Shown here: positions 43,672 to 62,863 of the stretch, in pieces
How positions within the stretch are numbered: the first letter of the stretch is position 1
Layout of the letters: every line of letters starts with the position of its first letter
The notes under the pieces: model-generated
What the model saw: only the letters and a program-made list of their open reading frames with translations
What the model was told of the DNA's origin: nothing
Databases searched by the model: none
IMG/VR virus record: IMGVR_UViG_3300046648_000213
Location: 1-64,000 of that record
Strand: one strand, 5' to 3'
Length of the DNA: 64,000 bases
DNA from: a virus
Position numbers and translations under genes: made by a program

Positions 43672-43970
43672 TGTCCAATTTATCGATTGGACAGCGAAAA
43701 ACGCATAACCTGATTTTTCAGTGTCTTTTACACTGGCTTAGAGCCCCGCGCGGGGCTGTCCAATTGGACAGCCTATAGCGCGGGGCTCTATCGTTTTGTG
43801 TTTCGTTTTTTGCTGGCTGTCCAATTGGACAGCCGCGCGCGCTGCTGTCTTTTGCTGGCTGTCCAATTGGACAGCCGCACGGCGCGCGCTGCTGATGCGC
43901 TGATGCGCTGCTGATGCGCTGATGCGCTGCTGATGCGTTGATGCGCGGCACTGTCCAATTGGACAGCCGC
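43672..43970. repeat. Cluster of TGTCCAATTGGACA palindromes around a GCTGATGC tandem
   Basis: Copies at 43757, 43818, 43860, 43952; expanded variant at 43672; GCTGATGC repeats about 43890-43945. Confidence 0.9.
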
Positions 43971-43999
43971 GCCTTTTAACTTTGATAGGGAGTTTTGCT

Positions 44000-44212
44000 A
44001 TGCGCCGTTTCTTTAGCTGGCTGGAATTTTGGGTTTTTGTTCTGGCGTCCGCCGGTGCCTTTTGGGTGTTCCTTTTCGCCACGTTGGTATTTCCAGACGT
44101 GCTGACCCGTTATCAGGTCTGCTGCACTTTGGCACTGGTCCCGACCTGTGCATGTGCCGCTTTCATCCAATTTCTGATTATCAAGGATGAGGAGCGCCGC
44201 TATGGTTGGTAA
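44000..44212 (+). CDS. Small 2-TM membrane protein
   Basis: GGGAG RBS, hydrophobic. Confidence 0.6.
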   Translation: MRRFFSWLEFWVFVLASAGAFWVFLFATLVFPDVLTRYQVCCTLALVPTCACAAFIQFLIIKDEERRYGW

Positions 44213-44468
44213 GAATCCGGCGCTTCTCGAATTGGACATTCAGACACTGAATGTTGAGGCTATTCATTTGCGCGCTGACTTTGAGGCTCTGCGTGCCAAA
44301 ACGATGAATGAGCTATCCAGCGTTATGCCGACGCTGCGAGATGTGACGCGCGCGCTCGAACGCCCGACGCTCACTGACGAGAAACGCCTGATGTTGGCTG
44401 AAGTGCTGGCGCAACGTCTGGACGTTGTTCAGGACGTGATCGACAAGTTGGCAGCAGCGAAGAGATGA
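44202..44468 (+). CDS. Hypothetical protein
   Basis: GAGGAG RBS. Confidence 0.6.
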   Translation: MVGKNPALLELDIQTLNVEAIHLRADFEALRAKTMNELSSVMPTLRDVTRALERPTLTDEKRLMLAEVLAQRLDVVQDVIDKLAAAKR

Positions 44469-44547
44469 GAGCGAAACGCGCTTCGGCGCGTCTGCATGTG
44501 AGGCATGCACTGACGAGCTCAGACAACTTTGATTGGGGAGTGTCCAA

Positions 44548-44898
44548 ATGGACATTGGAAACGCACAGCGCCGCGCGCTCGGTATCACGGGCGATTCTAT
44601 GTGGATGCAGCTTGGCATGACCGAAGCGCAGTTCCTTACCGCGCAGAAGCAGCACGCGCGAGATCGTGCGGATCGCTCGGCAGGCGAGCGGGCCTACAAG
44701 CTGGATCGTTACGAGGTGTCCGCGCCGATCGGCCGCATGCGCACGATGCTGCCTATCCTCAGCACGAGCGACAAAGCGACGGCGGTCGAGTTCTACGAGT
44801 CCGGCAAGCACCTGGGCTACGAGAAGAACTGGCCGGACGATCCGAAGCCACGGCAGCTGTCGAAAGGGCAGCTGCGCAAGCTGCGTAAGCGCCACTGA
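44548..44898 (+). CDS. Hypothetical protein
   Basis: Start lies inside the palindrome TGTCCAAATGGACA; GGGGAG RBS. Confidence 0.65.
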   Translation: MDIGNAQRRALGITGDSMWMQLGMTEAQFLTAQKQHARDRADRSAGERAYKLDRYEVSAPIGRMRTMLPILSTSDKATAVEFYESGKHLGYEKNWPDDPKPRQLSKGQLRKLRKRH

Positions 44899-45040
44899 CT
44901 GAGTTCGCATCAACTCAACTGAGTTGATTCGATCTCACCTCATATGTATTGGGCTCGACCCGATTCATATGACGTGAGATCATCTCGCGCCTGCTCAACT
45001 CAACTGAGTTGATACCAACTTAACTGAAACCGAATGGAGT
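44896..45040. repeat. 5-bp-periodic array (centromere-like)
   Basis: CAACT CAACT GAGTT GAT occurs twice; in-phase pentamers throughout. Confidence 0.65.
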
Positions 45041-45044
45041 TTGT

Positions 45045-45260
45045 ATGAACACGAAAAATCTGAACGGCCTGACCGACGTCCGCCACATCTTGACCGACGC
45101 TCGCGGGAAGTTGGAAGAGGCGCGCGCACGGCGCCGCCACGCTGTCGCATACACGATCGTGTGCCTGGGCATCGTCGGCGCGCTGTGCGCCACCATGTTC
45201 ACGCCGCAGAATGCGCACGCCGCGCGCTCGCATCATTCGAGCGTGCGGTCGCATCACTGA
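45045..45260 (+). CDS. Small membrane protein
   Basis: GGAG RBS, one TM helix. Confidence 0.6.
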   Translation: MNTKNLNGLTDVRHILTDARGKLEEARARRRHAVAYTIVCLGIVGALCATMFTPQNAHAARSHHSSVRSHH

Positions 45261-45280
45261 CTGTCCAATTGGACACTGAC

Positions 45281-45306
45281 AAAGCCGGCGCAATGCCGGC
45301 TTTTTT
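45281..45306 (+). terminator. Rho-independent terminator
   Basis: AAAGCCGGC-GCAAT-GCCGGCTTTTTT. Confidence 0.8.
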
Positions 45307-45879
45307 GCTTTTCTGCTCTCTGTCAATACCCTGAAAAATATTTTTCCGGGTCTTTTTGACACACCCCTCTGACTGACATTTCTTGCCGTTCGGGACCGAA
45401 ACCGAATCGAGTCCGCAAAATTTGACAAAATCCTCCGCATGTGCATCAACCCCGAAAAACACAAGCCCTTGTGTTTGTAACTGTATGCCGACCTTAATTA
45501 CTCTTTTCGAGTTTGGCAGCCGCTCTCCCTTACCAGACAAGAGTTTGAACCCTTCTATATTCAAATTATTAGTTAAAAAAGTAGGGTATGAGGGGGGTAA
45601 GCTCAAGTGCCTTAAAGACCGAGGACTTTCTCGTATGTGCTTGATCTAACAGGGAAAAATATTTTTCCTCACTCAGATTTTTGCTCTCTCGACCTTGGCG
45701 AACCCCCAAGGGGGTACTTTTCGGCAAGTCATTAAACAGTTGCTGTAAGTCCTTGATTTACAATGGACATTTCAACCGTGTGGCGTAACTCACACAGTCA
45801 AGTCGAAAACCATTGACTTTTGAAAACCACCTCAAAATCGTCGCTTTCCTCAATACAATCAACCACTTACGTCGAAAAA

Positions 45880-46067
45880 TCGATGCATGGGTGTTGTAAA
45901 TCGATGCATGGGTGTTGTAGCTCGATGCATGGGTGTTGTGGGGTCGATGCATGGGTGTTGTGACCTCGATGCATGGGTGTTGTGGGTCGATGCATGGGTG
46001 TTAGGCCCCTCGATGCATGGGTGTTTGCCTATTTTTTGTGCAAAAACGGCTCGATGCGTGGGTGTTG
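45880..46067. repeat. Iteron-like direct repeats TCGATGCATGGGTGTT x8; candidate replication origin
   Basis: Starts at 45880, 45901, 45922, 45944, 45966, 45987, 46010, 46051 (last one degenerate); adjacent AT-rich non-coding 45310-45880. Confidence 0.85.
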
Positions 46068-46203
46068 CGCGTGTTCTTTTGCACACGACGTTTTCTGTCT
46101 GAAATAGACGTCCCTTTTGGCGGAAAATGTCGTACAATCTCAGCCTGAATCGCAAAACGTCTTCAACTAGAATTGAAACCGAAAGGTGTATGGAGAAATT
46201 TCA

Positions 46204-46449
46204 ATGACTGACAATGCTTCGATGAGCCCGATCGAGCGCGCCGTGAACATCATCGGCGGCCCGAGCGAAACGGCACGCAAGATGACCCTCGCCACCGGCA
46301 AGCTGTTCTCGCCGAGCGTGGTTTGGCATTGGGTAGCGAAAGATCACGTGCGCGTGGAATTCCTGACGGCGCTGTCCAGGCTGAGCGGCATTCCGGTGCT
46401 CGAGTTCGTTGACCACCTCGCCTACACGAGCGAGAAGGCGACCGTATGA
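46204..46449 (+). CDS. Cro/YdaS-like HTH regulator
   Basis: IERAVNIIGGPSETARK...SPSVVWHW. Confidence 0.75.
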   Translation: MTDNASMSPIERAVNIIGGPSETARKMTLATGKLFSPSVVWHWVAKDHVRVEFLTALSRLSGIPVLEFVDHLAYTSEKATV

Positions 46450-47315
46450 TCGTTGCGCCAATCGAGAAGGTGATCCCGTTCCGGTACGCGCCGGACACAA
46501 TGGACGGCCTCTTCGAATGTCTCACTGTCCAATTGGACAACGAGATCATCGTCCCGGCGCGTGCGCTGTTCGAGGTGCTCGGCACGGACTGGCCGACCTC
46601 GCGCAAGATGCTGCTCGGGCGTGGCGTTGAATTCCGCAAGCATCCGGTGAAGGCGGGCAGGCGCGTGGGCCTGGTCGATTGCATGACGCTGCCCGACGTG
46701 ACAGCCGCGCTCGACAAGATGAACCCGAACAAGGCACCGTCCGACGAGCTCAAGATGCGCCGGCATCTGTTCAAGGTCGGTCTGGTGCGCGAGATCGAGA
46801 ACGGTTGGGGATTGAATATCGCTGCAAAATCCGCGGACCCGGACACGATCATAGTGACGGACACGTTGGACGGCGCGGACCTGTTCCGGCGCGACGCATC
46901 GCGGCTCGGCATGCATCCGAACCACATCGGCGCCGTGGTGCGCACGGGCGGCTTTATCGAAGTCGTGAAGCCGCAGGTGGCGACGCGCGTGAAGCGCCTG
47001 ATGCAGCCGAAGGGCGCACCGGACTCGTTCGTCGAGATCATCGAGCAGCGCGCGTCGCGCGAGACGATCCAGCTTCCGCTGGACGCTTACGCACCGGGCG
47101 AGCTCGAGCGGCGCATGCGGGACGCCAAACCCATCGTGCCGGCGGACATATTCGAGCGTAAGGCGTCGGACGACCCACTTGCCCAACGCCGTGTGTTGCC
47201 GCGCCGGCCGGACGTGATCGACCTGAACCCGACGCTGGACGATATGAATCCGGACCGGTGGAAGTTCGTGATGCTGCCGGAAACCGTTGAGAAGAAGGTG
47301 TGGGACTGTGAGTGA
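46446..47315 (+). CDS. Antirepressor-like DNA-binding protein
   Basis: N-terminal IIVPARALFEVLGTDW..SRK resembles the P22 Ant N-domain. Confidence 0.5.
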   Translation: MIVAPIEKVIPFRYAPDTMDGLFECLTVQLDNEIIVPARALFEVLGTDWPTSRKMLLGRGVEFRKHPVKAGRRVGLVDCMTLPDVTAALDKMNPNKAPSDELKMRRHLFKVGLVREIENGWGLNIAAKSADPDTIIVTDTLDGADLFRRDASRLGMHPNHIGAVVRTGGFIEVVKPQVATRVKRLMQPKGAPDSFVEIIEQRASRETIQLPLDAYAPGELERRMRDAKPIVPADIFERKASDDPLAQRRVLPRRPDVIDLNPTLDDMNPDRWKFVMLPETVEKKVWDCE

Positions 47316-47382
47316 ACACTGACCAGCTTGCGAGGCTGGTCAGTGTCCATTTGGACACTGCAACCTACGTTGGAAGTCACAT

Positions 47383-47766
47383 ATGGAGGTAACTATGCTC
47401 GAAGCGCTGCGCACTGTGCGCCGCCTCACGGACGAAGGGATGAAGCGCGAGATCGCTGAAGCGCTCGTCGAAGAGATCAATGCGGGGATGAAAGACAACC
47501 TCGTAACGAAGTCGGACCTGAAGACTGAACTTGCCCTGCTGCGTGCCGATATTAAGGCGGACCTCTCGGAGCTCAAGTCGGAACTCGTCGGCACGCGCTC
47601 CGACCTGCGTGCTGAGATCAGGGAAGGGAAGAGCGATTCGCGCTCGTACATCGACGGCGTGCTGTCTGACTTCAAGACGGCGATCACGGTGCGCGTCGCG
47701 TTCCTGATGGTCGCGCAGCTTTTCGCGATGGCCGGGATCGGCATGTATCTGAAGCACGGCGGCTGA
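47383..47766 (+). CDS. DUF1640/CCDC90-like coiled coil with C-terminal TM anchor
   Basis: LTDEGM..EIAEAL, LVTKSDL, heptads, C-terminal TM. Confidence 0.75.
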   Translation: MEVTMLEALRTVRRLTDEGMKREIAEALVEEINAGMKDNLVTKSDLKTELALLRADIKADLSELKSELVGTRSDLRAEIREGKSDSRSYIDGVLSDFKTAITVRVAFLMVAQLFAMAGIGMYLKHGG

Positions 47767-47931
47767 CATGCTTGCGTGGATTCTCCGCCGCCGCTACTAC
47801 GCGTTGCGGTATAGCGCACATGTGACAGGCGATCCGATCGTGGCTAACGCCGCCGATATTCTGGAGGCGCGGCTCGACCGCCTGCTAGTCGCTCACGACT
47901 AGCCTCAACACAATCTGTAGTGCAATTTCAC

Positions 47932-47953
47932 AGCCCGCTTCGGCGGGCTTTTT
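47932..47953 (+). terminator. Rho-independent terminator
   Basis: AGCCCGC-TTCG-GCGGGCT-TTTT. Confidence 0.8.
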
Positions 47954-47995
47954 CGTGTCCAAATGGACAACAACTTTAATCGGAGTAGAACAAAA

Positions 47996-48712
47996 ATGAA
48001 CAAGCACTTTCGCGTCTTCCACGCTCCCGAAACCTTCGACCCGAACAACATGGGTCCGGCGCAGCAGTACGATTGCATGGCGATCGACGAGACGGCTGCG
48101 CGTCAGCAGGTGAACGCCAAGTTCCCGAAGCACGAGATTCGCATCGTGTTCGAACGCAACCGGTTCAAGGATGCGCTGTTCATCCAGTCGGCGTGCAACC
48201 CGGTGGCGATCACGACCGCGCTGGCCGACGCGATGCGCATGTGCCGCGCCGAGAACATGGACACGTCGGCGATCTGCAACGACCCGGCCGTGCGCCTCAT
48301 CGTGCACCAGCTTGCCCACCTGACGAACCAGTACGAACTCACGAACTCCATGAGCGCGTACAGCCATGCGACGCAGATGTGCGAGCTCGGGCAAGACGGC
48401 AAGCAGTTCCGTCTCCCGAAGAAGCTCCCGATGCTCGACCTTAGAAAGGAAGAGGCGGGCGGCGGCCAATACATCTATGCCTGCGCCTGGGCGACGGCCA
48501 GCGGCGGATCGTGCGACTGGTGGTATCGCCAGCAAGACGCGTGGGACCACGCGCAGTCGCTGGCACTGAATGAGAACTTCTCCGACACCGAAGTCTGCTT
48601 CTTCGAGGTGATGGTCGACACGTCGACGGTCATGCGCGGCAACGTGGTCGACGTGCTCGACGGTGCGTATGCAGACCACCTCGCGAAGCACACGGTGGCA
48701 GCTGATGCCTAA
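47996..48712 (+). CDS. Hypothetical early protein
   Basis: Leader motif plus GGAG; typical codons. Confidence 0.7.
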   Translation: MNKHFRVFHAPETFDPNNMGPAQQYDCMAIDETAARQQVNAKFPKHEIRIVFERNRFKDALFIQSACNPVAITTALADAMRMCRAENMDTSAICNDPAVRLIVHQLAHLTNQYELTNSMSAYSHATQMCELGQDGKQFRLPKKLPMLDLRKEEAGGGQYIYACAWATASGGSCDWWYRQQDAWDHAQSLALNENFSDTEVCFFEVMVDTSTVMRGNVVDVLDGAYADHLAKHTVAADA

Positions 48713-48866
48713 GTTCAAGGTCGGGCAGACCGTGCGCTACATCAGCTACGGCGTCGAGAAGACGGAAGTGATCGTCCGCATCGGCGAGCGTAGCGGAATC
48801 CTTTTCTTCTCCGGCGGCAGGTTCCTGTATCCGGAGAGCGTTATCGAAATCGTGGAGAAGTCATGA
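48705..48866 (+). CDS. Small SH3-like protein (FKVGQTV)
   Basis: Coupled ORF. Confidence 0.5.
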   Translation: MPKFKVGQTVRYISYGVEKTEVIVRIGERSGILFFSGGRFLYPESVIEIVEKS

Positions 48867-49117
48867 ACGAACAACAAATGCTGGAACTGCTGCGCGCCAC
48901 GGTGCGCGCCAAGCTCGCTTATTGGGACGAACTGCGCAAGCTCGAGCTCGCGCTGACGAACGGCGGCGAGTTCAGCGACAAGGCGAACGACCAAGTGATC
49001 GCGGACATCGACACACTTGCCGCCGGCCTGCCGCTCGACAACAACACCGACGCGATCACGAGTGTCCATTTGGACAACCTGAAGCACGCCGTCGCCGAAC
49101 ATCCGATCGAGGACTGA
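48863..49117 (+). CDS. Hypothetical protein
   Basis: ATGA overlap, GGAG RBS. Confidence 0.7.
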   Translation: MNEQQMLELLRATVRAKLAYWDELRKLELALTNGGEFSDKANDQVIADIDTLAAGLPLDNNTDAITSVHLDNLKHAVAEHPIED

Positions 49118-49118
49118 C

Positions 49119-49715
49119 ATGAGCACGAACATCACCGTCATGCCGACAATGGACATGACCAGCGACGAGCGCCACGTCTTCTACGCGGTCGAATGGCTCA
49201 CGGACGATGGACACCATGCCGTCGACGTCTATCACTACGAGGAAAGCCGCGACAGCCACGCCAAGGGGCTGAGCAAAGCGAAGGTCGTGGTCTACGACAT
49301 CGTGTGCCCGTTCAGCGCCGGCCAGGAGGAAGCGGAAGACTTCGCCCGCGACAACGCATACCTGAAGCAGCCGGCCGCCGTGCATCAGGCCGACCGCCGC
49401 GAGATGGAGATCGCGATCGTCACGAAGCTCGTCAACACGGCGATCCACCTCGGCTACGAGGTCAGCGTGTACGACGGCGAAGCGTGGCCGATCAAGCACA
49501 GCACCTTCGCGCTGAACGTGCTGGCCGAGATGTTCGCAACCTCTGAAGAGTCGCTGCACTTTCACAGCGGCAAGCGCTACATCGGCGTCGTCGATCTCGT
49601 GTACGGCAACGAGGGCTGGACTGTGATCGCCGACAACACGGAAAGCGCAGAGATGACCGCCATCCTCGCGCCGGCCGAAGAACTTGCCCGCCAACTGGAG
49701 TTTGAAAACGCATGA
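49119..49715 (+). CDS. Hypothetical acidic protein
   Basis: GAGG RBS; LVYGNEGWTVIAD. Confidence 0.7.
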   Translation: MSTNITVMPTMDMTSDERHVFYAVEWLTDDGHHAVDVYHYEESRDSHAKGLSKAKVVVYDIVCPFSAGQEEAEDFARDNAYLKQPAAVHQADRREMEIAIVTKLVNTAIHLGYEVSVYDGEAWPIKHSTFALNVLAEMFATSEESLHFHSGKRYIGVVDLVYGNEGWTVIADNTESAEMTAILAPAEELARQLEFENA

Positions 49716-50104
49716 ACCCGATCAAGATCACGCTCGAGACGGAACTGGACGACAGCTGGATGCAGGAGATGTTCGCGATGATCGATATAGGAGTCGCGTA
49801 TTGGGCGACGCCCAACGTCGAGCGCTTCGTCGACTATCGCGAGACGAACGGCGACCGCACGGTCGCGCTGCACATCATCGAGGATGAGGTCGTGCGCGGC
49901 CAGGATCACCCGCGCGAGCTCGCTATCGACGCAGCGGTAATCAACCGCGGCATCGAGCGCATCCTGCAGGGCGATGTGCACGCATACCCGGACGAGATCG
50001 GCGAGATCGTCAAGTCGCTGAACACCGGCGAGAACCTGATCGGCGCCGAACTTGCCGACACGATCGTGCAGGCCGGCCTGTACGGCGAACTCATTTGGGG
50101 GTGA
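49712..50104 (+). CDS. Hypothetical acidic protein
   Basis: ADTIVQAGLYGELIWG ending. Confidence 0.7.
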   Translation: MNPIKITLETELDDSWMQEMFAMIDIGVAYWATPNVERFVDYRETNGDRTVALHIIEDEVVRGQDHPRELAIDAAVINRGIERILQGDVHAYPDEIGEIVKSLNTGENLIGAELADTIVQAGLYGELIWG

Positions 50105-50105
50105 C

Positions 50106-50525
50106 ATGAAGCTGTTCATGATGTGTGGCCGCATCAGCGGTTGGGATGACGATCTCGCGATGCTTGTGGCAGCTGAGGACGACGCCGAAGCGTGCGCCAA
50201 GTTCCGGCGCGAGCTTCTCGACATTGACGGAAGCCAGTGCCCGCCGGACTGCGAGGAGCCGGAGCTCTACATCCACCAGACCGATCTCGTCGGCGCGATC
50301 ATGCCGGACGGCAAGGTGCAGACGTCGTTCGGCGGGGGCGCGGCGCCGGAGCCGGAACCGAAGCACTTCACGGTGCAGATCACCGAGTCGAGCCAGTATC
50401 AGGTCGATATCCTGTGGCCGACGCGCGAGGGTGTGGAGGACGAAGCGCGCCGGCTGCTGGTCGAAGGCGGAAAGGACGCGTTCCTGACCGATTGCAACGA
50501 ACTCTCGATCAAGGTGCACGAATGA
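50106..50525 (+). CDS. Hypothetical acidic protein
   Basis: Coupled ORF. Confidence 0.65.
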   Translation: MKLFMMCGRISGWDDDLAMLVAAEDDAEACAKFRRELLDIDGSQCPPDCEEPELYIHQTDLVGAIMPDGKVQTSFGGGAAPEPEPKHFTVQITESSQYQVDILWPTREGVEDEARRLLVEGGKDAFLTDCNELSIKVHE

Positions 50526-50944
50526 AGGTCAAGACGAAGGACCTGAGCGGCGCTGCGCTCGACTACGCCGTCGCGACGTGCGAAGGACTTCCGCTGCGTC
50601 TCGATCCTATGGGTTTTCGCAGGGACGCGCCAAAGTCGTCGCAAGCCGGATGGTGGGTGTGGGACGAGAAACCCGGCGTGTTGAAGATGGTCACGCAGTT
50701 AGTCGGGAAGGACTATTCGCCTTCGACAAATTGGGCGCAGGGCGGGCCGATCATCGAGATCAAGCGCATCGACGTTATCTCGGACCCGAACGGATCGGCC
50801 GGCTGGATGGGGCGCAACTATGTCGACTGGCGAGAGGTCCAGCGTTTCGGCGCGACGCCGCTTGAAGCAGCGATGCGCTGCTACGTGAGCGCCACGTATG
50901 GCGAGGAGCTCGACATCCCCGACGAACTCATGGAGAAAGCATGA
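50522..50944 (+). CDS. DUF2591/NinX-family protein
   Basis: LSGAALDYAVA, YSPSTNWAQGGPII, GATPLEAAMRCYV. Confidence 0.85.
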   Translation: MKVKTKDLSGAALDYAVATCEGLPLRLDPMGFRRDAPKSSQAGWWVWDEKPGVLKMVTQLVGKDYSPSTNWAQGGPIIEIKRIDVISDPNGSAGWMGRNYVDWREVQRFGATPLEAAMRCYVSATYGEELDIPDELMEKA

Positions 50945-51108: not shown

Positions 51109-51267
51109 TGTGGCAGATACGACACGCACACACGATGGAGGACCTCGGGACATACGTGACGACCAATGCGGCGCTCGCCGCATTGAAAGCCGATGGGTTT
51201 CGGGTCTACGCAACAATCCGCACGAAGGGAGTTATCTACGTCGTGCCTGACGAAAGGAAGAAGAAAG

Positions 51268-55461: not shown

Positions 55462-55853
55462 GAATTCTGTTCAATGACCGTGTGGGCAAAGAGTGCCGCA
55501 CCTGCTGCACCCGCCCGCGCGTCATCGACACCAGGCCGACCGATACCGGCTACGTCTATCGCCGCATGAAGTGCGAGTGTGGGCAGGAGCGGACGCTGGA
55601 GATTCCGATGTCCCTGTACGAGGGCATGGAGAAGCAGATCGCCGACCTGAAGGCACAGAGCGCCAACATGCAGCGCGAGATCGCTCGCATGGAAGCGGAG
55701 GCGGCAGCAATGAGCGACATTCACGCCACGCTCAAGCGCGTGGAGGCTGCGGTCACGCAGGTGCCGGAGAAGCCAACCTTGCTGATCGACGAGCCGGTGC
55801 CGCGCATGCCGCCGCCGCGCCACGTCATCGACCGCCGCTCTATGAGCATCTGA
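55458..55853 (+). CDS. Zinc-ribbon (NrdR-N/Ogr-like) coiled-coil protein
   Basis: CRTC...RVIDTR...YRRMKCECG. Confidence 0.55.
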   Translation: MRILFNDRVGKECRTCCTRPRVIDTRPTDTGYVYRRMKCECGQERTLEIPMSLYEGMEKQIADLKAQSANMQREIARMEAEAAAMSDIHATLKRVEAAVTQVPEKPTLLIDEPVPRMPPPRHVIDRRSMSI

Positions 55854-55918
55854 ACGAGACATTTAATGTCCCAACCGGGCTGTCCAATTGGACAGCCCTT
55901 TTACTTTAAGAGGAAGTT

Positions 55919-56449
55919 ATGGCAGCACATGTGACCCTGCACGACGACATCATCGACTCGCGCGACATCGAATCGCGCATCGACGAGCTCGAGGCCCTGA
56001 AGGAAGCAGTCGACGACGCGAAGGAAGCCGTCGACGAGCGGCGCGCGGAGCTCGTAGAGGAGTTCGGCGGCGAAGAGGAAACCGACCTCCGGCCGCGCGA
56101 GTGGGCGGACTTCTGCGATGCGGACGAGGAACTCAAGGGCCTCGTCGAAGCGCATGCCCGAGCGGATCAGGAACTCATCGACGAGATGGACAGCGACGAG
56201 GAGCTCGACCAGCTGCTCGAAGTGCGCACGGAAGTCGACGGCTACAGCCGCGAGTGGCGGCACGGCGTGACGCTCATCAACGACGACTACTTTGAGCGGT
56301 ACGCCGAGCAACTTGCCGATGACCTCGGGCTCATCAGCAACACAGCGCAGTGGCCGGCGACCTGCATCGACTGGAAACAGGCTGCGAAGGAACTGCAGAG
56401 CGACTACACGTCAGTAGAGATCGGATCGGAGACGTACTGGTATCGGTAG
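55919..56449 (+). CDS. Acidic antirestriction-like protein (ArdA-like C-terminus)
   Basis: Very D/E-rich; FERYAEQL...CIDWKQAAKEL..DY. Confidence 0.5.
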   Translation: MAAHVTLHDDIIDSRDIESRIDELEALKEAVDDAKEAVDERRAELVEEFGGEEETDLRPREWADFCDADEELKGLVEAHARADQELIDEMDSDEELDQLLEVRTEVDGYSREWRHGVTLINDDYFERYAEQLADDLGLISNTAQWPATCIDWKQAAKELQSDYTSVEIGSETYWYR

Positions 56450-56501
56450 CAATTTCATGCTCGTTGAAAACACATGAACAAAACCTAACCAGAGGGTCAA
56501 C

Positions 56502-57008
56502 ATGCAAGCTGTACATGCGTTAAATTCTGTGGCCGATTTCACATCGAAAGCTGTGATCTCGGCCAGCGTGATGCAAGTAGATCGTAATCCTGACGAGCCG
56601 TGGCAGGGGAGCGACAAGAACCATTGGCGCATCGAATTGCAGCACCGCGATCGCTCGATGGTTCTCTGGATGTCAATGGACCGCTCGATGGTAGAGCGCA
56701 ACGTGAATGGCAAGTGGGTCCGCCAGTTCACGCGCGACGAACCTCAGACGGACCTTCAGCGCATGCTCTGGCGCAACCGATACCGCGAGGCCCGACCAAC
56801 GGCCGAAGAGGTATTGAAGCTGGTGCGGCGCAACGCGGCACGCGCAACGAAAGCGATCAACTTCGGCGGCTGGCTTGCCGGATGCGGGTACGAAAACGAC
56901 CCGCGCGCGAACCGTGAGGTGTATCGAGCCTGCTTGAGACAGGCCGATGAGTTGTATTTGATGCTCGGCTCGAACCTCTACAGAGAGTTGCTCGAGCTCG
57001 ATGCGTAA
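56502..57008 (+). CDS. Hypothetical protein
   Basis: GAGGG RBS. Confidence 0.65.
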   Translation: MQAVHALNSVADFTSKAVISASVMQVDRNPDEPWQGSDKNHWRIELQHRDRSMVLWMSMDRSMVERNVNGKWVRQFTRDEPQTDLQRMLWRNRYREARPTAEEVLKLVRRNAARATKAINFGGWLAGCGYENDPRANREVYRACLRQADELYLMLGSNLYRELLELDA

Positions 57009-57020
57009 CTGAAAAGGAAA

Positions 57021-57371
57021 GTGAAAGTGTCCCGCTATACCGAACTGAAAGAACAGCACGAAAAGCTCACCCTCGAACTGCAGGCCGCATTCGAGGAAGA
57101 GAAGAAGCAGGCGATCGACGAGATCAAGGCCATGATCGACACGTACAGCATCACGGCTTATGACCTCGAGATCGAGGTGAAGGCGAAGAAGCTGCCGCCT
57201 GGAAAGAAGACGCACAGCACGTTCGCCGTGAAGAAGCCGCGCATCACTGTGCCGCCGCTGTACCGCGATCCGGAAAGCGGCAAGACGTGGAGCGGGCGCG
57301 GTCGAGAGCCGCTCTGGTTGGAAGGTAAGCGGGACGAGTTCCTCATCAAGCAGCAAGAGCAGCCAGCGTAA
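57021..57371 (+). CDS. hns: H-NS family protein (Bv3F-type)
   Basis: YRDPESGKTWSGRGREPLWL; N-terminal oligomerisation helix. Confidence 0.92.
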   Translation: MKVSRYTELKEQHEKLTLELQAAFEEEKKQAIDEIKAMIDTYSITAYDLEIEVKAKKLPPGKKTHSTFAVKKPRITVPPLYRDPESGKTWSGRGREPLWLEGKRDEFLIKQQEQPA

Positions 57372-57423
57372 GAATCGAGGGTGTCCAATTGGACACCCTC
57401 TCAACTTTAAGTGGAGTATAAAA

Positions 57424-58131
57424 ATGACATTCGAAATTAGGGGTCCTATTTACGGCGGCGAGATCATCGAGGTCGAAGGCTTCCGCTTCCGCATCGAGGT
57501 CGAGCAGGACGAGTTCATGGGTCCGCCGTGGGAAGAGCACGACGGCCACGGGATCGTGAGCGAGTGGACGTCGCGCGACAAGCGTCCGGGCGAGTGGATT
57601 ATCAACTCGGACCGCTTCAGCAAGCGCTTCTACGACTTCGCCGGCACGATGAAGAAGGCGAAGAAGGAAGGTTGGGGGCTCACTGAAAAGGCGAAGGCCG
57701 AGCTCATCGAACGGCTGAGCCGCAAGCGCATCATCCGTCTGCGCAAGCCGATCGAGAAGTTCGTCGGCCCGCTGGTGAACCCGATCCGATACGTCAGCGT
57801 GCTGGAGCGCCCCGGCCGCGACCCGAACAAGCCGCTGACGCGAGGCGAGATCACTGAGGAGGCCGTGCGCCGGGACTACGAGCACCTGCGAGGTTGGTGC
57901 AACGATCACTGGCAATGGCAGATCGTGTCAGTGATCCGCCTCGAGGACGAGGAGGGCAGCGAGGAGGAGCACGAGGACGGCACCAGCTTCAGCCTCGGCG
58001 GCGTAGAGAACTCGGACGACGCCTATGTGAAGGAGATCGTCTATGAGCTCCTGGACGAAGCTCTCCACGTGCTGAAGAAGGAGCGCAACGAGCGGCAGTA
58101 TTGGGCCGAGCGCGACGTCGAAACGGTGTGA
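57424..58131 (+). CDS. Hypothetical protein
   Basis: PWEEHDGHG; LRGWCNDHW; follows palindrome and leader. Confidence 0.7.
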   Translation: MTFEIRGPIYGGEIIEVEGFRFRIEVEQDEFMGPPWEEHDGHGIVSEWTSRDKRPGEWIINSDRFSKRFYDFAGTMKKAKKEGWGLTEKAKAELIERLSRKRIIRLRKPIEKFVGPLVNPIRYVSVLERPGRDPNKPLTRGEITEEAVRRDYEHLRGWCNDHWQWQIVSVIRLEDEEGSEEEHEDGTSFSLGGVENSDDAYVKEIVYELLDEALHVLKKERNERQYWAERDVETV

Positions 58132-58209
58132 GTCTCTAGCCTGCAGCCCCGCGTGCGGGGTTGTGGGGTAGCGGCATTCCGCCGCACCTAACTTTCAACG
58201 GGAGTCACA

Positions 58210-58692
58210 ATGGACATCACTATCAACTCTTGGCGCGACCTCGAGCAGTTCGGAATCAACGCCCTGACCGGCGAGTCGGACAAGCTCGGCCAGCGCATCC
58301 TGTGCGACTTGTCTGCCCGCGGCGTGGCCGCGATCGGCGAGTATCTCGGCATGGAGCCCTCGGGCCTCTCGCCCAACTGGAATTCGAAAGTCGGCGAGGA
58401 GCCGGCCGTGGCCTCGATTCTGTTGCCGCGCGACTACACGCCGCTCGCTATGTTCCTGCTGCTCGGCGTGGCGCGCGTCCCGTATATCGTGACCATGAAC
58501 GGGTCGATGATCGGCACCGACCGTAGGCAGTATGCGGACGAGAATGACAAGGCGATTGAGGAGCTCGTCAGGCGCAGCCCTGACGAGCCGTCGATCGGCT
58601 GGCGCCTGCCCTACAGCGTCATCCGGAACCCGCTGCCGGCCGACGCATTAAGTATTCGCAACATTCACGGGTTTACCGGACGGACCAGCTAA
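58210..58692 (+). CDS. Hypothetical protein
   Basis: GINALTGES...RILCDL; leader motif. Confidence 0.7.
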   Translation: MDITINSWRDLEQFGINALTGESDKLGQRILCDLSARGVAAIGEYLGMEPSGLSPNWNSKVGEEPAVASILLPRDYTPLAMFLLLGVARVPYIVTMNGSMIGTDRRQYADENDKAIEELVRRSPDEPSIGWRLPYSVIRNPLPADALSIRNIHGFTGRTS

Positions 58693-58830
58693 GCCGGTCG
58701 GAAGGTAAGTTTCGGGCTAAGGTCGGCTTAGGCGCCAAACTCCGTGCGGTAGCACTTGTCAAAGTTTTATATGGCTGAGCTACAATCTGGGTCGGCAAAA
58801 TAAAAGCCAAACTTACTTTGGAGGTTGGAA

Positions 58831-59151
58831 ATGTTCTGCAACTACGGTCAGTTGCCGCCCGAGAAGCAAGAGTTGGCACAGGAAAAAGTCTTCGAAGACC
58901 TGGTGGAAGCGGTAGTGACACGGGGTTTGCGTTTCAATGACTGTGCTAACGGCAGCAATCTGCAATTCAAGATAGACCGCGCATGGGAACGAGTTTCGAA
59001 CCTAGACGTTGATGCCGAAGATCAACCGGAATGGGTACGACATTTGGTCGCATCAGAGTGTGAGGTCGAACTTAAAGCGATCGCCGTTCAGACAGCCAAG
59101 GATGCAACGTATATCTCAAACGAGACTGTCATCAATTTAGATCAGCTTTGA
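58831..59151 (+). CDS. Hypothetical protein (low GC)
   Basis: GGAGG RBS. Confidence 0.6.
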   Translation: MFCNYGQLPPEKQELAQEKVFEDLVEAVVTRGLRFNDCANGSNLQFKIDRAWERVSNLDVDAEDQPEWVRHLVASECEVELKAIAVQTAKDATYISNETVINLDQL

Positions 59152-59174
59152 TTGTCCAATTGGACAGCAACTTG

Positions 59175-59199
59175 AACCCCGCCATGTGCGGGGTTTTTT
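59175..59199 (+). terminator. Rho-independent terminator
   Basis: AACCCCGC-CATGT-GCGGGGTTTTTT. Confidence 0.75.
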
Positions 59200-59217
59200 A
59201 CTTTAGAGGAAGTGAAA

Positions 59218-60063
59218 ATGCAAAACGCCAAACGCGCAAAGATCGACGAAACCGCAAAGCGCATCGTCGAGCAGGACGTCTACTACTGCGTCTCGTATCT
59301 GGTCAGGGGACTTGCCAAGCTCGAGGGCATGCTCAAGTACGCGCAGATGACGGAGATCGGCCTCGACCCCGATGAACTGCGCGGCGTGCTCATTCAGGAC
59401 GACTGGCAGTCGGCTGCTGAAGAGCAGGGCTGGGCGATGGGCGAAGACGAGGTGATCTCGAAGGCCGGTGAGGAGAACACCTACACCGACTGGCAGGACC
59501 TCTGCAGCAACGAGAACATCGACCCGCACACGACGGAGGCTTACGAGCACTGGATCGTGAGCGACTGGCTCGCCAAGAAGCTCGAAGACAAGGGCGAGAT
59601 GATCGTGCGCGACATGATGGGCCTGACGATTTGGGGGCGGCCGACGACCGGCCAGGCGATCTACATGGACTACGTGATGCAGCGCATCGCGGAAGACCTC
59701 AACGGCCCGCCGGGACTGACGCTGATCCTGATCGATCCGTTCAACCGCAAGGTAACGAAGATCGAGAGCGAGACGCCCGAGCTCGACCTGCACGAGACGT
59801 ACAAGCTGCTGGACGTCAACCTCATCACGTCGGTCGGGCTGCCGAACGGCGACGTGATCTACGTCGATGACGAAGGGCTGCTGATGAACGACTTGTCGAA
59901 GCAGGGCTTCTTCCAGTACGAGGGTCATCCGGAGCCGCTGGCCGGCAAGGGTCTGATCGTCGGCAGCGACGGCAAGGGCGGCAACGCTTCGGCGAAGACG
60001 ACGCTCGACGAGGCGGTCGCGAAGACGAAGTGGATGCTGTACGTTTCCGGCAACGAGCAGTAA
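59218..60063 (+). CDS. Two-domain protein, C-terminal DUF3846-like
   Basis: YEHWIVSDWLA...IWGRPTTGQAI, then IYVDDEGLL...LAGKGLIVG. Confidence 0.65.
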   Translation: MQNAKRAKIDETAKRIVEQDVYYCVSYLVRGLAKLEGMLKYAQMTEIGLDPDELRGVLIQDDWQSAAEEQGWAMGEDEVISKAGEENTYTDWQDLCSNENIDPHTTEAYEHWIVSDWLAKKLEDKGEMIVRDMMGLTIWGRPTTGQAIYMDYVMQRIAEDLNGPPGLTLILIDPFNRKVTKIESETPELDLHETYKLLDVNLITSVGLPNGDVIYVDDEGLLMNDLSKQGFFQYEGHPEPLAGKGLIVGSDGKGGNASAKTTLDEAVAKTKWMLYVSGNEQ

Positions 60064-60127
60064 AAAGGTGAGAGGGAAGTCCCCCTCTCTATCTGTAAAA
60101 TATAGGACAACTTAATAGGAAGTGAAC

Positions 60128-60862
60128 ATGCAAGAAAAATTGTTGGTCGAAGGCGTCGAGTACGTGAGCGATTCCTGCTTCGTCTACGGGGACTACGGCG
60201 GTGCCGGTTCGCTCGGTGTAGCGAACGTGCGGCACCTGAAAGAGAACTTCGACTGGATGGGGATCGGCATGAGCCAGATCGAGCCGGAGAAGTTGGCCGG
60301 CGAGTTCAAGTACCGCCTGCGCTACTACGGCGTCGACGAGGTGCAGGCGCACCTCGAGACTGGCGACCCGCTGCCTGATGTGCTGCTTGCGGAGGGACAG
60401 TTCGGCTCGGTGCAGGCGTGGCTGCGCGCCGACGCGGAAGGTGCTGACGAGATCATGGCAGCGATGGCAGACTATCCGGTGCTCGACGATCAGGAGCTCA
60501 GCAAGGTCGAGATGGAGTGGGAGCAGGAGGCGTGGGACGGTTGGCTGCGCTCCGATCTCATGAAGACGCTCCGATACGACTACTTCGACGAGGCGGACGA
60601 GGACGAGGACAAGTCGCTCGAGGAGCGCGCCGACGAGCAGCTAACCGACGCGCAACTGTTCGAGGCGTACCGCGCCGCGATGGACGAGTGCAACGTCTAT
60701 CCGACGCCGGAGCTCAACGGAGTGCACATCCCGGTCGAGCGCATCGCCGGGTCGTTCGGCGTGCACGTCGTCGAGGCGCTCAAACTCGACAATCACCTGC
60801 GGGCGCGCGAGATCGCCCGCGAGGCCGGCCAACTGGAACTCAACTTAGAGGAGGTAAATTGA
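60128..60862 (+). CDS. Acidic hypothetical protein
   Basis: DYPVLDDQELS motif. Confidence 0.7.
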   Translation: MQEKLLVEGVEYVSDSCFVYGDYGGAGSLGVANVRHLKENFDWMGIGMSQIEPEKLAGEFKYRLRYYGVDEVQAHLETGDPLPDVLLAEGQFGSVQAWLRADAEGADEIMAAMADYPVLDDQELSKVEMEWEQEAWDGWLRSDLMKTLRYDYFDEADEDEDKSLEERADEQLTDAQLFEAYRAAMDECNVYPTPELNGVHIPVERIAGSFGVHVVEALKLDNHLRAREIAREAGQLELNLEEVN

Positions 60863-61320
60863 CATTTTTTCCAAACGGGACAACAATCGAGCCTTCGATG
60901 TATTCCCCGCGCGAGCCGAGCGCCTACAGCGTTATGTGGGACGGCGCACGTTGGGGGTACGGAGCGCACGAATGGTTCCGGGACGACGTTCCGTACTGGA
61001 ACCTCTTCTGGCTTAGCTGCGCGGGGCTCGAGGCCCTGCTCGACTGGCCGGAAGATCGCGGCGGCGAAGTGCCGACGTTCTCGCCTCTCATGAACTGGAC
61101 GAGGCAGACCGTCGAGCAGCGGGTCAATGGGCAGAAGCTGCGGCGACTGCTTGTCGACCTGACGCCGCCGCAGTTCGTCAGCTTCGTGGGGATGCACAAG
61201 CACTCGCACCTGACTGTCGTCCGGGAGATGGGCGCGGCGTGGATTCAGACGATCACCGACCGCAGCCGGCTCTACGCGCCGCGGCAGGGGTTGGACTGGA
61301 AGTCCTTGGGCATCGGATAA
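60859..61320 (+). CDS. Hypothetical protein (start uncertain)
   Basis: GGAGG then TTG; TTGACA-17-AACAAT overlaps the start. Confidence 0.5.
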   Translation: MTFFPNGTTIEPSMYSPREPSAYSVMWDGARWGYGAHEWFRDDVPYWNLFWLSCAGLEALLDWPEDRGGEVPTFSPLMNWTRQTVEQRVNGQKLRRLLVDLTPPQFVSFVGMHKHSHLTVVREMGAAWIQTITDRSRLYAPRQGLDWKSLGIG

Positions 61321-61368
61321 GAGAACGGACAGCGCCTTCGGGCGCTGTTTCCACATAAAGGCCGACCG

Positions 61369-62796
61369 ATGACACCCTATGAATTGGTGACGTACCGCTA
61401 CAAGCTGCCCTTCCCCCTTTACCCCTATCAGGTCGATGCCGTAAACGACCTGTCGCCTCGACCGCGCGTCGGCTTCTACGCGGAGGTCGGCACCGGCAAG
61501 ACGGCGATGTCGACGGTGTGGGCGCTGTACAAGACGCTGACCGAGAGCGCCGTGCACATCGTGCTGATGCCGCCGATCCTGATGATGGGTTGGAAGCGGT
61601 GGCTCGACAAGATTCCCGGCGTGAAGAGCGTGCTGTACCGCGGCACGCCGAAGCAGCGAAAGCTGATCGAGCTCGACGCGGACTTCGTGCTGATGTCGAT
61701 GGACATCTTCAAGATCGACTTCGAATACCTGTCGCACATGTTTCAGCACCGCAACGTCAGCCTGATCGTCGACGAAGCGACCAGCGTGAAGAACTCGAAG
61801 TCGCAGAACCACAAGCGCGTGAACGAGTTCTCGGCCGGCGGCAACCTTGCCCTGCTGACCGGGACTCCGCTCTCGACGCCGTGGGACGCCTACGGCTACT
61901 GCAAGTTCATCGCCCCCGGCACGTACAGGAACCTGCGGCAGTTCGAGCGCGTGCACGTAGCCGAGACGGACTTCTTCGGCAAGGTCACGAAGTGGGGCAA
62001 TCTCGAGCTCATGGCCGACAACATGAAGATCAATGCGGTCCGGATTCTGAAGCGCGAGGTGCTGCAAAACTTGCCGGAAGTGCAGTATCTGCCGATCCCG
62101 TATGAGCTCACCGGTGAGCACATCAAGCTGTACCGGCAGCTGTGCGACGAGCAGCTTCTGATTCTGGAGGACGGCGGGAAGATCGACGCGACCGGCGAGT
62201 CGAAGATGTACCATCTTTCGCAGCAGATCATCTGGAACCCGGACCACTTCAGCGGCAAGCCGGAGACGCGCGCGTCGGGCTTCGACGTGCTCGATCAGGT
62301 GCTCGAGCAACTGGACACTGCGTCGGAGAGCGGCGAGAAGCTGCTCATCTACGCGAACTACAAGATGACGATCCGCGGCCTGCTGAAGTACCTGGCGCCG
62401 CTCGGCGCCGTCGCCGCGTACGGCGAGGTGCCGCGCGCGCAGCAGGACCGGAACGTCGACCGGTTCATGTCAGACCCGACGTGCCGCGTGCTGATCGCTC
62501 AGCCGCTGTCCGCCGGCGCGGGCCTGAACCTGCAGGAATGCTGCGGCAACGTGTTCTTCCCTGAGATGCCGGTCGTGCCGAAGGACTTCGCGCAGGCTGT
62601 CGGCCGCGTCGACCGGGACGGACAGATTAGAAAGGACGTTCGAATTTTCCTGCCGCAGGCGATGCGCACGATCCAGATGGAACTGGTGGATCGCCTGATG
62701 GATAAGGACTGGCTGGTCGGGAAGGTGCAGCGGCAGGCGGTCGATCTGCGCACGGCGATCTTCGGCGGCTCTGTCTCAGAACTGCAACCGGCTTAG
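61369..62796 (+). CDS. SNF2-like SF2 helicase
   Basis: GTGKT, IVDEAT, LTGTP, GAGLNLQ, QAVGRVDR. Confidence 0.92.
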   Translation: MTPYELVTYRYKLPFPLYPYQVDAVNDLSPRPRVGFYAEVGTGKTAMSTVWALYKTLTESAVHIVLMPPILMMGWKRWLDKIPGVKSVLYRGTPKQRKLIELDADFVLMSMDIFKIDFEYLSHMFQHRNVSLIVDEATSVKNSKSQNHKRVNEFSAGGNLALLTGTPLSTPWDAYGYCKFIAPGTYRNLRQFERVHVAETDFFGKVTKWGNLELMADNMKINAVRILKREVLQNLPEVQYLPIPYELTGEHIKLYRQLCDEQLLILEDGGKIDATGESKMYHLSQQIIWNPDHFSGKPETRASGFDVLDQVLEQLDTASESGEKLLIYANYKMTIRGLLKYLAPLGAVAAYGEVPRAQQDRNVDRFMSDPTCRVLIAQPLSAGAGLNLQECCGNVFFPEMPVVPKDFAQAVGRVDRDGQIRKDVRIFLPQAMRTIQMELVDRLMDKDWLVGKVQRQAVDLRTAIFGGSVSELQPA

Positions 62797-62863
62797 TGTC
62801 CAACTGGACACTGCGTATAATCCGACGCCAGCAAGGCATCGTAACTTACAACGGGAGTTTCAA

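Follow-up and report, generated by a model that had tools for sequence, protein, structure and literature searches.

Known dispersed repeats of phage genomes

Exact palindromes that are private to a genome and stand between early genes are known in a few groups of actinobacteriophages, and their function has been open for a decade or more according to the accessible text of the reports (PMC4351075, PMC3203893, PMC12699233). Here, we describe the palindrome TGTCCA-NN-TGGACA (TGTCCANNTGGACA) of an uncultivated phage. The analysed window comprises bases 1–64000 of a single 83,209-bp virus record, IMGVR_UViG_3300046648_000213, which is rated as complete by CheckV. Most copies are concentrated in the rightward early arm, and we tentatively read them as docking sites at which a symmetric, sequence-specific protein would control this arm on the DNA level.

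The closest described kind are the dyad repeats of the Cluster O phages (Corndog group). These 17-bp elements occur in 34 invariant copies in Corndog, 14 of them intergenic, and have no known function; in the part of the study available to us, the authors read the invariant dyads as sites of dimeric proteins (PMC4351075). Among the kinds compared, Cluster O is the only one whose defining features the palindrome shares. In both cases, the inverted arms are fixed, a short A/T-rich centre varies, the flanks are G/C-rich and one-mismatch variants are very few. The copies, which are many (dozens in Cluster O), are enriched where the non-structural arm has short gaps between genes, a smaller number falls inside open reading frames (ORFs), the motif is private to its group, and occasional indels are found between copies. 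However, the geometry is 7-3-7 in Cluster O and 6-2-6 here, and sequence, host phylum and phage lineage differ. Unlike in Cluster O, the copies described here crowd into one 20-kb arm with a five-copy array at its head, their flanks covary into stable hairpins, and related phages carry different palindromes.

Further systems share single aspects with the palindrome. The stoperators of Cluster A are bound by a repressor at places all over the genome (PMC9283540, accessible part). Like the palindrome, they are present as many exact, mostly short intergenic sites, and they silence transcription beyond the promoter, as far as the available sections state (PMC4319613, PMC3203893). However, stoperators are 13 bp long, lack symmetry, follow the direction of transcription and bind their repressor as a monomer, whereas we find a perfect palindrome. 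Helix-turn-helix candidates are encoded here, but none is linked to the site, and no integration system was found. The start-associated sequences of Cluster K likewise lie in the non-structural half only, 5′ of start codons, with a lineage-specific inverted-repeat consensus in the accessible text (PMC3203893), and their function was still open in 2025 (PMC12699233). They differ in being asymmetric, in including the ribosome site and in lying 3–7 bp from the start, in contrast to 21–53 nt upstream and copies within genes here. A related kind are the 22-bp repeats of T1-like phages (PMC4319613, in part). Finally, the PeSL cassettes of T4-type phages have conserved intergenic stem-loop elements between small early genes, which recombine and thereby shuffle cassettes; these elements are ~100 bp long and contain a strong sigma-70 promoter according to the sections at hand (PMC2839356), whereas only 14 bp are conserved here and promoters are not enriched.

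Of a ParB/parS or KorB-type network, the phage encodes a partition ATPase, but neither ParB_N nor sites adjacent to the par genes were found. The best mechanistic precedent is provided by the Streptomyces phage phiC31, in which highly conserved palindromic operators with many intergenic copies in the early region are bound by a repressor. The difference is that the phiC31 binder is a known immunity repressor.

An exact palindrome in the early arm

The window contains 20 matches to the palindrome, while 100 dinucleotide-preserving shuffles yielded a mean of 0.00 and a maximum of 0. The original prediction of about 20 copies was thereby borne out, including the exact coordinates of 17/17 early-arm and 2/2 late-gene copies and an expanded variant at the head of the arm; the copy at 652 comes in addition. 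The whole 83,209-bp genome harbours 21 copies and no match to a backwards-pattern control. All 12 arm positions are fixed in 21/21 copies, and only the 2-nt centre varies (AT 12, TT 3, AC 3, AA 2, TG 1). The four centres named previously (AT, AA, TT, AC) are all present, but TG, used at 652, was missing from that list. Among the asymmetric centres, neither orientation clearly prevails (AA 2 vs TT 3, AC 3 vs GT 0). Besides the 21 exact copies, the genome has a single one-mismatch site (80523) and three two-mismatch sites, so that the family appears as all-or-none; with up to two mismatches allowed, 23 sites were found in the window compared to 1.69 expected. No G-U-type, wobble or compensatory variants of the core occur in the genome. 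The palindrome is thus strongly non-random, and its symmetry is a symmetry of sequence, beyond mere structure.

Placement was evaluated using the gene list compiled in this analysis, with the early arm defined as 43622–63358. Genome-wide, 14 copies are intergenic, one covers a start codon (44541) and six lie within ORFs (652, 6188, 18274, 46526, 49063, 68928). Copies outside the early arm therefore exist, but to speak of a phage-wide cassette system, as suggested before, overstates the pattern, since 17/21 fall in the early arm at 43.7–62.8 kb. Within this arm, 14 of the 17 copies are located entirely in the 18.7% of non-coding sequence (binomial P 2.5e-8), which confirms the predicted preference for gene boundaries. 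This result does not depend on the head of the arm, as 10 of 13 copies remain in 17.1% non-coding sequence when its four copies are left out (P 3.8e-6). A typical copy is found 0–53 nt past the preceding stop codon and 21–53 nt ahead of the next start, and all early-arm copies lie along one transcription direction. Separate canonical terminator-like hairpins adjoin the copies at 45262, 47956 and 59153.

At the head of the arm, the variant and four copies form an array of five elements within 43672–43965, between the terminator of an ORF of 284 amino acids (aa) and the first early gene. Ribosome sites do not follow these head-of-arm copies in this phage. Elsewhere, many early genes in 43966–63000 share a AACTTTAAG- or ACTTACGG-type leader between palindrome and start codon, which is conserved and lies directly 5′ of a GGAG ribosome site (for example at 43972–43999, 47970–47995, 55895–55918 and 57396–57423). 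This early-gene leader is similar to the translational-enhancer leader of T7 gene 10. Of the copies inside ORFs, two are found in the middle of minus-strand tail genes and another in the ligase gene; at such places, a role as ribosome site or in RNA processing would make no sense. All copies and the other features of the phage are listed in Table 1.

The region around the array is also conspicuous in its composition. At 42000–46000, which spans the 284-aa Ala-rich ORF and the palindrome array, the G+C content is 0.52–0.53 compared to ~0.62 elsewhere, and short tandem repeats of GCTGATGCG-type units are found within it at about 43885–43945.

Table 1 Palindrome copies and other features of the phage genome. 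Positions refer to the window, which starts with the first base of the record.
Feature	Position	Strand	Context
Expanded variant, 8-nt arms, 6 nt between	43672-43695		Opens head-of-arm array; sequence read directly
Copy, centre AT	43757-43770		Intergenic, head array; 3 Watson-Crick flank pairs; tip of longer inverted repeat
Copy, centre AT	43818-43831		Head array; 3 Watson-Crick flank pairs; local direct repeat with 43860
Copy, centre AT	43860-43873		Head array; 3 Watson-Crick flank pairs
Copy, centre AT	43952-43965		First early start codon (44000) 34 nt downstream
Copy, centre AA	44541-44554		Overlaps ATG of ORF 44548-44898
Copy, centre AT	45262-45275		Stop of 45045-45260 1 nt upstream; terminator-like hairpin 45281-45303 next
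Copy, centre AT	46526-46539		Within ORF 46446-47315, 80 nt from ORF start; no flank pairing
Copy, centre TT	47344-47357		Intergenic; start 47395 37 nt downstream; 3 flank pairs
Copy, centre AA	47956-47969		Directly past terminator-like hairpin 47932-47949; start 47996 26 nt downstream
Copy, centre TT	49063-49076		Within 3′ end of ORF 48863-49117; start 49119 42 nt downstream
Copy, centre AT	51517-51530		Intergenic; start 51552 21 nt downstream; 2 flank pairs
Copy, centre TT	52196-52209		Intergenic; start 52237 27 nt downstream; 2 flank pairs
Copy, centre AC	54500-54513		Start 54542 28 nt downstream; 3 flank pairs; counts as intergenic unless ORF 54269-54532 is a gene
Copy, centre AT	55881-55894		Intergenic; start 55919 24 nt downstream; 4 flank pairs; terminator-like score with T-rich tail
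Copy, centre AT	57382-57395		Intergenic; start 57424 28 nt downstream; 5 flank pairs; strongest predicted hairpin (-20.6 kcal/mol)
Copy, centre AT	59153-59166		Stop of 58825-59151 1 nt upstream; terminator-like hairpin 59174-59196 next
Copy, centre AC	62797-62810		First base past stop codon of SNF2 helicase gene; 2 flank pairs
Copy, centre TG	652-665		Within ATP-dependent DNA ligase gene
Copy, centre AT	6188-6201		Mid-gene in tail/structural gene
Copy, centre AT	18274-18287		Mid-gene in central tail fibre gene
21st copy	68928		Past window end, within ORF
Terminator-like hairpin, 13 pairs and T-run	43627-43659	plus	Closes ORF 42767-43621 just 5′ of head array
284-aa Ala-rich ORF	42767-43621	plus	Directly 5′ of array; candidate binder by position only
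198-aa protein, two helix-turn-helix stretches	41666-42262	minus	Head of leftward late arm; candidate binder
87-aa ORF, Cro/YdaS-like by eye	46186-46449	plus	No Pfam match; candidate binder
ATP-dependent DNA ligase gene	161-1438
ParA-like ATPase, 217 aa	1706-2359		AAA_31 and CbiA above cut-off
Tail/structural gene	4998-8060	minus
J-like central tail fibre gene	17140-20712	minus	Protein family scans
Tape measure gene	23103-28580	minus	Protein family scans
Major head protein gene	33506-34726	minus	Protein family scans
Large terminase gene	38461-40158	minus	Protein family scans
SNF2 helicase gene	61369-62796	plus
Primase gene	63371-66208	plus

Flanking sequences and predicted hairpins

The flanks of the palindrome had been described as often complementary, pointing to selection for a hairpin. 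At least two consecutive Watson-Crick flank pairs are indeed present at 10/21 copies compared to 7.9% of random windows, and at least three at 7/21 compared to 2.2%. When the right flanks were permuted among the sites, three measures of flank pairing gave P values of 0.0002, 0.00115 and 0.0001. The copies at 43757, 43818 and 43860 have GGC/GCC flanks in common and two of them lie within a local direct repeat, so these three are not independent. At least five different flank pairs are in use, however, which argues for covariation of the flanks and not for a single copied unit. The six copies within ORFs have 0 or 1 flank pair each. For the ten flank-paired intergenic copies, RNA stems of 7–10 pairs with -13 to -21 kcal/mol are predicted; across all copies, predicted stems comprise 5–11 pairs and the median hairpin energy in this genome is -12.2 kcal/mol. 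Selection for a hairpin, as suggested by the covarying flanks, would apply to this genome only, as no such pattern is found in its relatives (see below).

RNase III acts on long double-stranded RNA of about two helical turns, as in the T7-type sites. A T7-like processing hairpin, one of the functions proposed earlier, is therefore unlikely, because the stems of the palindrome are far shorter than this enzyme needs; a sequence-specific role on the RNA level is a separate matter and is weighed below. Comparison with Rfam gave no family match for the palindrome.

Several other readings of the element were discarded. Four sigma-70-like promoters were found in 43200–63100 compared to 5.1 in shuffles, with none at a fixed distance from the copies. 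The right arm resembles a -35 element, yet no -10 hexamer is present at the right spacing when the sites are read directly. Considering also that the scanned proteins include no phage RNA polymerase, the palindromes are not obviously promoters. Hairpin promoters of the N4 type were dropped because the virion genes are of siphovirus type and no RNA polymerase family is represented among the 70 proteins scanned. As intrinsic terminators, only the copies at 55881 and, on the minus strand, 51517 scored with a T-run, and separate terminators stand beside 45262, 47956 and 59153. REP elements mobilised with a RAYT protein were rejected as well, since a six-frame search of the genome for the Y1 transposase (PF01797) gave no match.

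Related phages carry palindromes of their own

Based on terminase and SNF2 helicase, the phage belongs to a large clade of uncultivated phages of 76–90 kb (36–57% identity), with SHOU24-like Vibrio siphoviruses as more distant kin (~30%). No nucleotide-level relative was found in the phage collection searched. TGTCCA-NN-TGGACA itself is multi-copy in no other viral contig and absent from the nearest relative by large terminase (TerL), and a 16-mer version is present in seven viral contigs with 1–2 copies each.

Twelve related uncultivated genomes were scanned whole, and palindromes were counted de novo by exact arms, a procedure which degenerate motifs would escape. Three of them (G014, G015 and G009) have an early-arm palindrome of their own, while exact-arm counting revealed no dispersed palindrome above background in the other nine. 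In G014, TCGGAA-NN-TTCCGA occurs 26 times, all within 17.5 kb, and the same core is present 12 times in the 52-kb fragment G015. Since the early arms of these two phages have no detectable nucleotide similarity, the palindrome appears to be conserved beyond its surroundings. In the head cluster of G014, two copies lie within a conserved ORF at positions non-homologous to the copy in the G015 orthologue. G009 has 13 copies of TTTAC-N-GTAAA within 20 kb. Cultured phages are included as well: Vibrio phage SHOU24 carries TTGGTCT-N-AGACCAA in its first 40 kb (10 exact and two one-mismatch copies), and Vibrio phage K478b carries 36 copies of TTGGT-N5-ACCAA, of which 33 have full 7-1-7 arms. In K478b, 35/36 copies are located in the plus-strand non-structural arm, 26 are outside annotated coding sequences although ~95% of the arm is coding, and most lie 11–56 nt ahead of a start codon.

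Altogether, a common design recurs across these lineages, consisting of an exact dyad with a variable A/T-rich centre in 12–36 copies within the non-structural arm, mostly in pre-gene gaps; a minor share of the copies lies within genes, and the head of the arm is often marked by a cluster. This design is conserved across a wide phage clade. Conservation in relatives, named previously as a check, therefore holds for the design in G014, G015, G009, SHOU24 and K478b, but not for the sequence. The hairpins and flanks are not part of what is shared: median RNA hairpin energies in relatives are weak (-6.5, -7.4, -4.2 and -6.5 kcal/mol, with -4.2 in G009) compared to this genome, and no flank covariation was detected in G014, G015, G009, SHOU24 or K478b (permutation P 0.61, 0.40, 0.89, 1.0 and 0.75).

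The new aspects are a pattern that spans the clade but is private to each lineage and extends to Vibrio phages in culture, the covariation of flanks in this genome, the recurrence of the identical 14-mer near par genes in unrelated replicons and one exactly palindrome-bounded cassette. A design described for actinobacteriophages is now found in siphoviruses of about 80 kb that infect Gram-negative hosts and form a large clade, with each lineage using its own sequence. In the literature on SHOU24-like phages, we found no description of palindromes, although supplementary files might still hold motif lists, and the accessible part of PMC7199398 does not mention them. As cultured Vibrio phages are included, with K478b as the richest in copies, the questions of the binder and of DNA or RNA as its target can be addressed in a tractable host.

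Other repeats were noted in the same set of genomes. Besides its early-arm palindrome, G009 has a second one, TCCCAC-N3-GTGGGA, with 8–10 copies dispersed over the whole 84.8-kb genome. In G007, a relative without dispersed palindromes, GGCAC-N5-GTGCC is present eight times within 700 bp (81720–82411); this local array is possibly an origin or control region. G010, also without palindromes, contains ten copies of the non-palindromic 10-mer CTCCTTAGGG at 43068–63937, which, when read on the gene strand, represents a conserved sequence fused to the ribosome site in the manner of start-associated sequences. The repeats GCACGT-N3-ACGTGC (five, in tandem; L046) and GGCGCC (L047) were rejected as local tandem repeats and not counted as dispersed palindromes.

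A proposed DNA docking site and a possible RNA element

We infer that a protein binds the palindromes, that its target would be DNA and not RNA, and that the outcome would be control of early transcription; this protein is most likely phage-encoded and lineage-specific. One dimeric protein would dock on the double-stranded palindromes and act on the whole rightward early arm. Control would be exerted mainly at the head array, where five elements occupy 300 bp past the terminator of the preceding gene. The single sites, found in almost all gaps that separate groups of early genes, would strengthen silencing or shut-off, acting as roadblocks or as local operators. In addition, the intergenic copies of this phage have probably gained G+C-rich complementary flanks, leading to stable transcript hairpins with a possible role as attenuators or RNA-end protectors, and the identical short junction sequences are likely to act as crossover points for the gain, loss and reordering of cassettes. 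If 20–36 sites are under the control of one protein, this protein would act as a master switch for the early programme and could be exploited in phage engineering.

Recognition of double-stranded DNA by a dimer is favoured over an RNA structure because the arms are exact, only the centre is tolerant, wobble and compensatory variants are lacking, copies occur within genes and antisense to them, and hairpins are weak in most lineages. Among the functions suggested by the original prediction, operators of one dimeric regulator consequently fit best, with the fixed arms, the in-ORF copies, the head array and the palindromes of relatives all in line, but no binder emerged among the proteins scanned. 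Further support comes from two unrelated replicons in which the identical 14-mer is located near parA/parB, a classic setting of protein-bound centromere or operator sites. The intergenic copies of this phage probably do both a DNA and an RNA job, since transcript stems of 7–10 predicted pairs would not be neutral.

Several observations weigh against DNA docking sites. Covariation of the flanks in this genome suggests a hairpin. In G014, AGGAG follows 15/26 copies with zero spacing and the start codon comes 5–8 nt further on; a near-ribosome site stands behind four further copies, while the six copies that open the arm have none. Likewise, 7/13 copies in G009 overlap TGGAG, and a DNA operator needs no such register. 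In all-against-all BLASTP, no protein family turned out to be shared by every palindrome-bearing genome and missing from the rest. The 284-aa neighbour of the array shows no DNA-binding signature in the family scans, the only Pfam-detectable helix-turn-helix protein (41666–42262) sits in the late arm and has weak look-alikes, some of them in palindrome-free relatives, and a PadR-like regulator is restricted to the Vibrio phages. The system is also not needed by the clade as a whole, because only 3/12 relatives scanned whole have one. For their own repeats, the Cluster O authors considered a transcriptional role unlikely, as most sites are not near promoters, according to the accessible part of the study (PMC4351075).

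The next best explanation, which we consider possible but clearly less probable, is an element acting on the RNA level, namely a short hairpin of the polycistronic early RNA, located 5′ of each ribosome-binding site, that shields RNA ends or is bound or cut by a sequence-specific phage protein, either a global repressor or activator of translation or an endoribonuclease separating the cistrons. It would account for the tie to translation starts seen here and in K478b, for the register with ribosome sites in G014 and G009, for the flank-paired stems of this genome, and for early-arm copies that all follow one transcription direction and often precede the conserved leader. In position, its closest analogue are the start-associated sequences of Cluster K, which are suspected of a translational role in the sections available (PMC3203893); G014 and G009, where the palindrome abuts or overlaps the ribosome site, come closer to this arrangement than the phage described here. 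However, both arms are fixed and the would-be loop is the sole variable part, with no wobble or compensatory changes in the core. Moreover, the hairpins of relatives are weak and lack flank covariation, copies are found mid-gene, antisense to late genes and at the head of the arm without a ribosome site, the stems are too short for host RNase III, and no Rfam family matches.

A more specific version appears unlikely. Here, a phage-encoded, sequence-specific system of hairpin recognition would act on nascent early RNA or on the non-template strand, with the palindromes as its cis half. One protein at a hairpin before almost every early cistron would gate translation or cut the polycistronic RNA, the recognition pair would drift together in each lineage, and the sites would double as crossover points for cassettes. 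Such a system would be the natural counterpart of the engineered hairpin-nuclease insulators in synthetic operons.

Search for a putative binding protein

Candidates for the proposed docking protein were sought by Pfam and PHROG scans of 70 phage proteins and by all-against-all BLASTP over this genome, the 12 relatives and K478b. The 284-aa Ala-rich ORF next to the array has no family match, is absent from 20 relatives, gave no lead in the ESM Atlas and returned nothing in a search for close relatives. Ala-rich proteins occupy the same head-of-arm position in this genome (G000), in G014/G015 and in G009, with no detectable similarity between them. For the 198-aa protein with two helix-turn-helix stretches, the related-locus search found no close relatives. 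The protein encoded at 47996–48712 has homologues only in the palindrome-bearing G014 and G009 and none in G015, and it contains no known fold or domain. For the Vibrio phages, the PadR-like regulator of K478b (26377–26910, E 3.2e-8), with a weak match in SHOU24, is a candidate. In addition, the 116-aa protein at 57021–57371 has a coiled-coil N-terminus and ends in an H-NS domain (Pfam Histone_HNS, E 1.3e-9); its homologues are found in G014 (45%) and G016 (32%). It was rejected as the binder because its family is not sequence-specific and because it is absent from G009 and G015.

The same 14-mer at partition loci

Outside this phage, five metagenome contigs with two 14-mer copies 20–50 nt apart were found, four of which represent local tandem or long-hairpin repeats. 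The remaining contig, L160 (39% G+C), has five dispersed copies of TGTCCAATTGGACA at 5131–9082 around ParA, ParB_N and SMC-like genes, and 3/5 of these copies have 5-bp complementary flanks of differing sequence. Similarly, a Nocardia mexicana contig (L164 2971–3028) has two copies of the same 14-mer ~100 bp upstream of a ParA-like gene. Judged by these settings, the 14-mer probably serves as a protein-bound site in other replicons. The par partner proteins of both contigs show no resemblance to any protein of this phage.

Dispersed partition sites, accompanied by gene silencing, are known from some plasmid prophages. In our phage, sites of the centromere type bound by a partition or nucleoid protein, for example the small ParA partner, could serve segregation of a plasmid prophage with silencing as a by-product. 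The phage encodes a ParA-like ATPase followed by an overlapping 109-aa ORF (2350–2679; pair 1706–2679), whose C-terminus is ribbon-helix-helix-like by eye, and a tyrosine integrase was not found. Among 22 relatives, ParA is present only in G014, the relative richest in copies, where the same gene pair is followed by a Rep-like ORF; the shared 14-mer at par genes of unrelated replicons also fits. We nevertheless consider a partition role improbable. A six-frame search of the genome for ParB_N (PF02195) gave no match at E up to 1, with the control positive in 11/14 genomes, and no palindrome adjoins the par genes, the nearest being the copy at 652, 1 kb upstream within the ligase gene. Furthermore, 21 sites tied to gene junctions far exceed the needs of segregation, and ParA is missing from three palindrome-bearing phages, G009, SHOU24 and K478b with 13, 12 and 36 copies, so partition is not a general role.

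The region upstream of parA (1439–1705) and positions 1–160 contain several short inverted and direct repeats of the GAACTGAA/TCAACTGA type, read by eye. These repeats are more likely than the 14-mer to be the centromere of the par genes. The par pair, the iteron-like repeats described below and the lack of a tyrosine integrase and of ParB_N in our searches suggest a possible plasmid-prophage lifestyle.

Probable cassette exchange at the palindromes

The relation of palindromes to gene exchange can be seen in the Vibrio phages. Comparing SHOU24 with K478b, two homology blocks both end at a single K478b palindrome (50095–50109), between primase and helicase. In SHOU24, the same blocks are split by 753 bp carrying a DNA methyltransferase gene, with palindromes at 26525 and 27295 as exact bounds. 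Overall, a palindrome is no more than 40 nt away from 3/26 homology-block ends between the two phages (P about 0.03). For the phage described here, a search of sequencing runs returned three rhizosphere DNA runs, one of which is its likely source, and no RNA run; short contigs from two runs with about 88–95% likeness were compared. The similarity of one contig ends 8 nt past the copy at 47344, and the other 4/5 contig ends are away from copies. The seven early genes common to this genome and G014 differ in their order.

Recombination had been among the functions proposed for the palindromes, and these data lend it modest support as a secondary effect. Since identical sequences stand at gene junctions, cassette exchange is likely a side effect. 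If the sites also guide exchange, this would help to explain how accessory and anti-defence genes are traded without breaking operons. It is doubtful, and still less probable than partition, that linking cassettes by identical border sequences for the exchange of accessory genes is the primary function. Precedents exist, as the Cluster O authors give two indels between repeats (PMC4351075) and PeSL elements were shown to recombine (PMC2839356), both in the sections available. However, 14 bp provide little homology, most contig and block ends are located elsewhere, and dyad symmetry, in-ORF copies, the head array and the core conserved between G014 and G015 are left unexplained. No dedicated recombinase came to light, as neither a Y1 transposase nor a tyrosine integrase was found.

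The least probable of these readings is mimicry of a host operator, by which early genes would be coupled to a host signal or the host regulator titrated: it would agree with the lack of a phage-encoded binder in BLASTP and family scans, with one core in the unrelated early arms of G014 and G015 and another in Vibrio phages of different hosts, and with the 14-mer beside par genes in bacterial and plasmid-like DNA, but when one genome of each species was scanned for pairs of copies within 15–45 nt, only three stretches were found, none of them a plausible host regulon.

Genome layout

The virion genes of the phage are of siphovirus type, and tape measure and tail proteins are its large virion proteins. 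The rightward plus-strand arm from ~44 kb starts with small early genes, which are followed by replication genes (SNF2 helicase, primase, family A polymerase, ThyX and dNMP kinase). The 70 proteins scanned with Pfam and PHROG, a subset of the ORFs, include no RNA polymerase family. Within the early arm, a 17-mer starting with TCGATGCATGGG is present seven times (k-mer count) at 45739–46069, just 5′ of the Cro-like-looking 87-aa ORF and a 289-aa ORF, and has the appearance of an iteron array.

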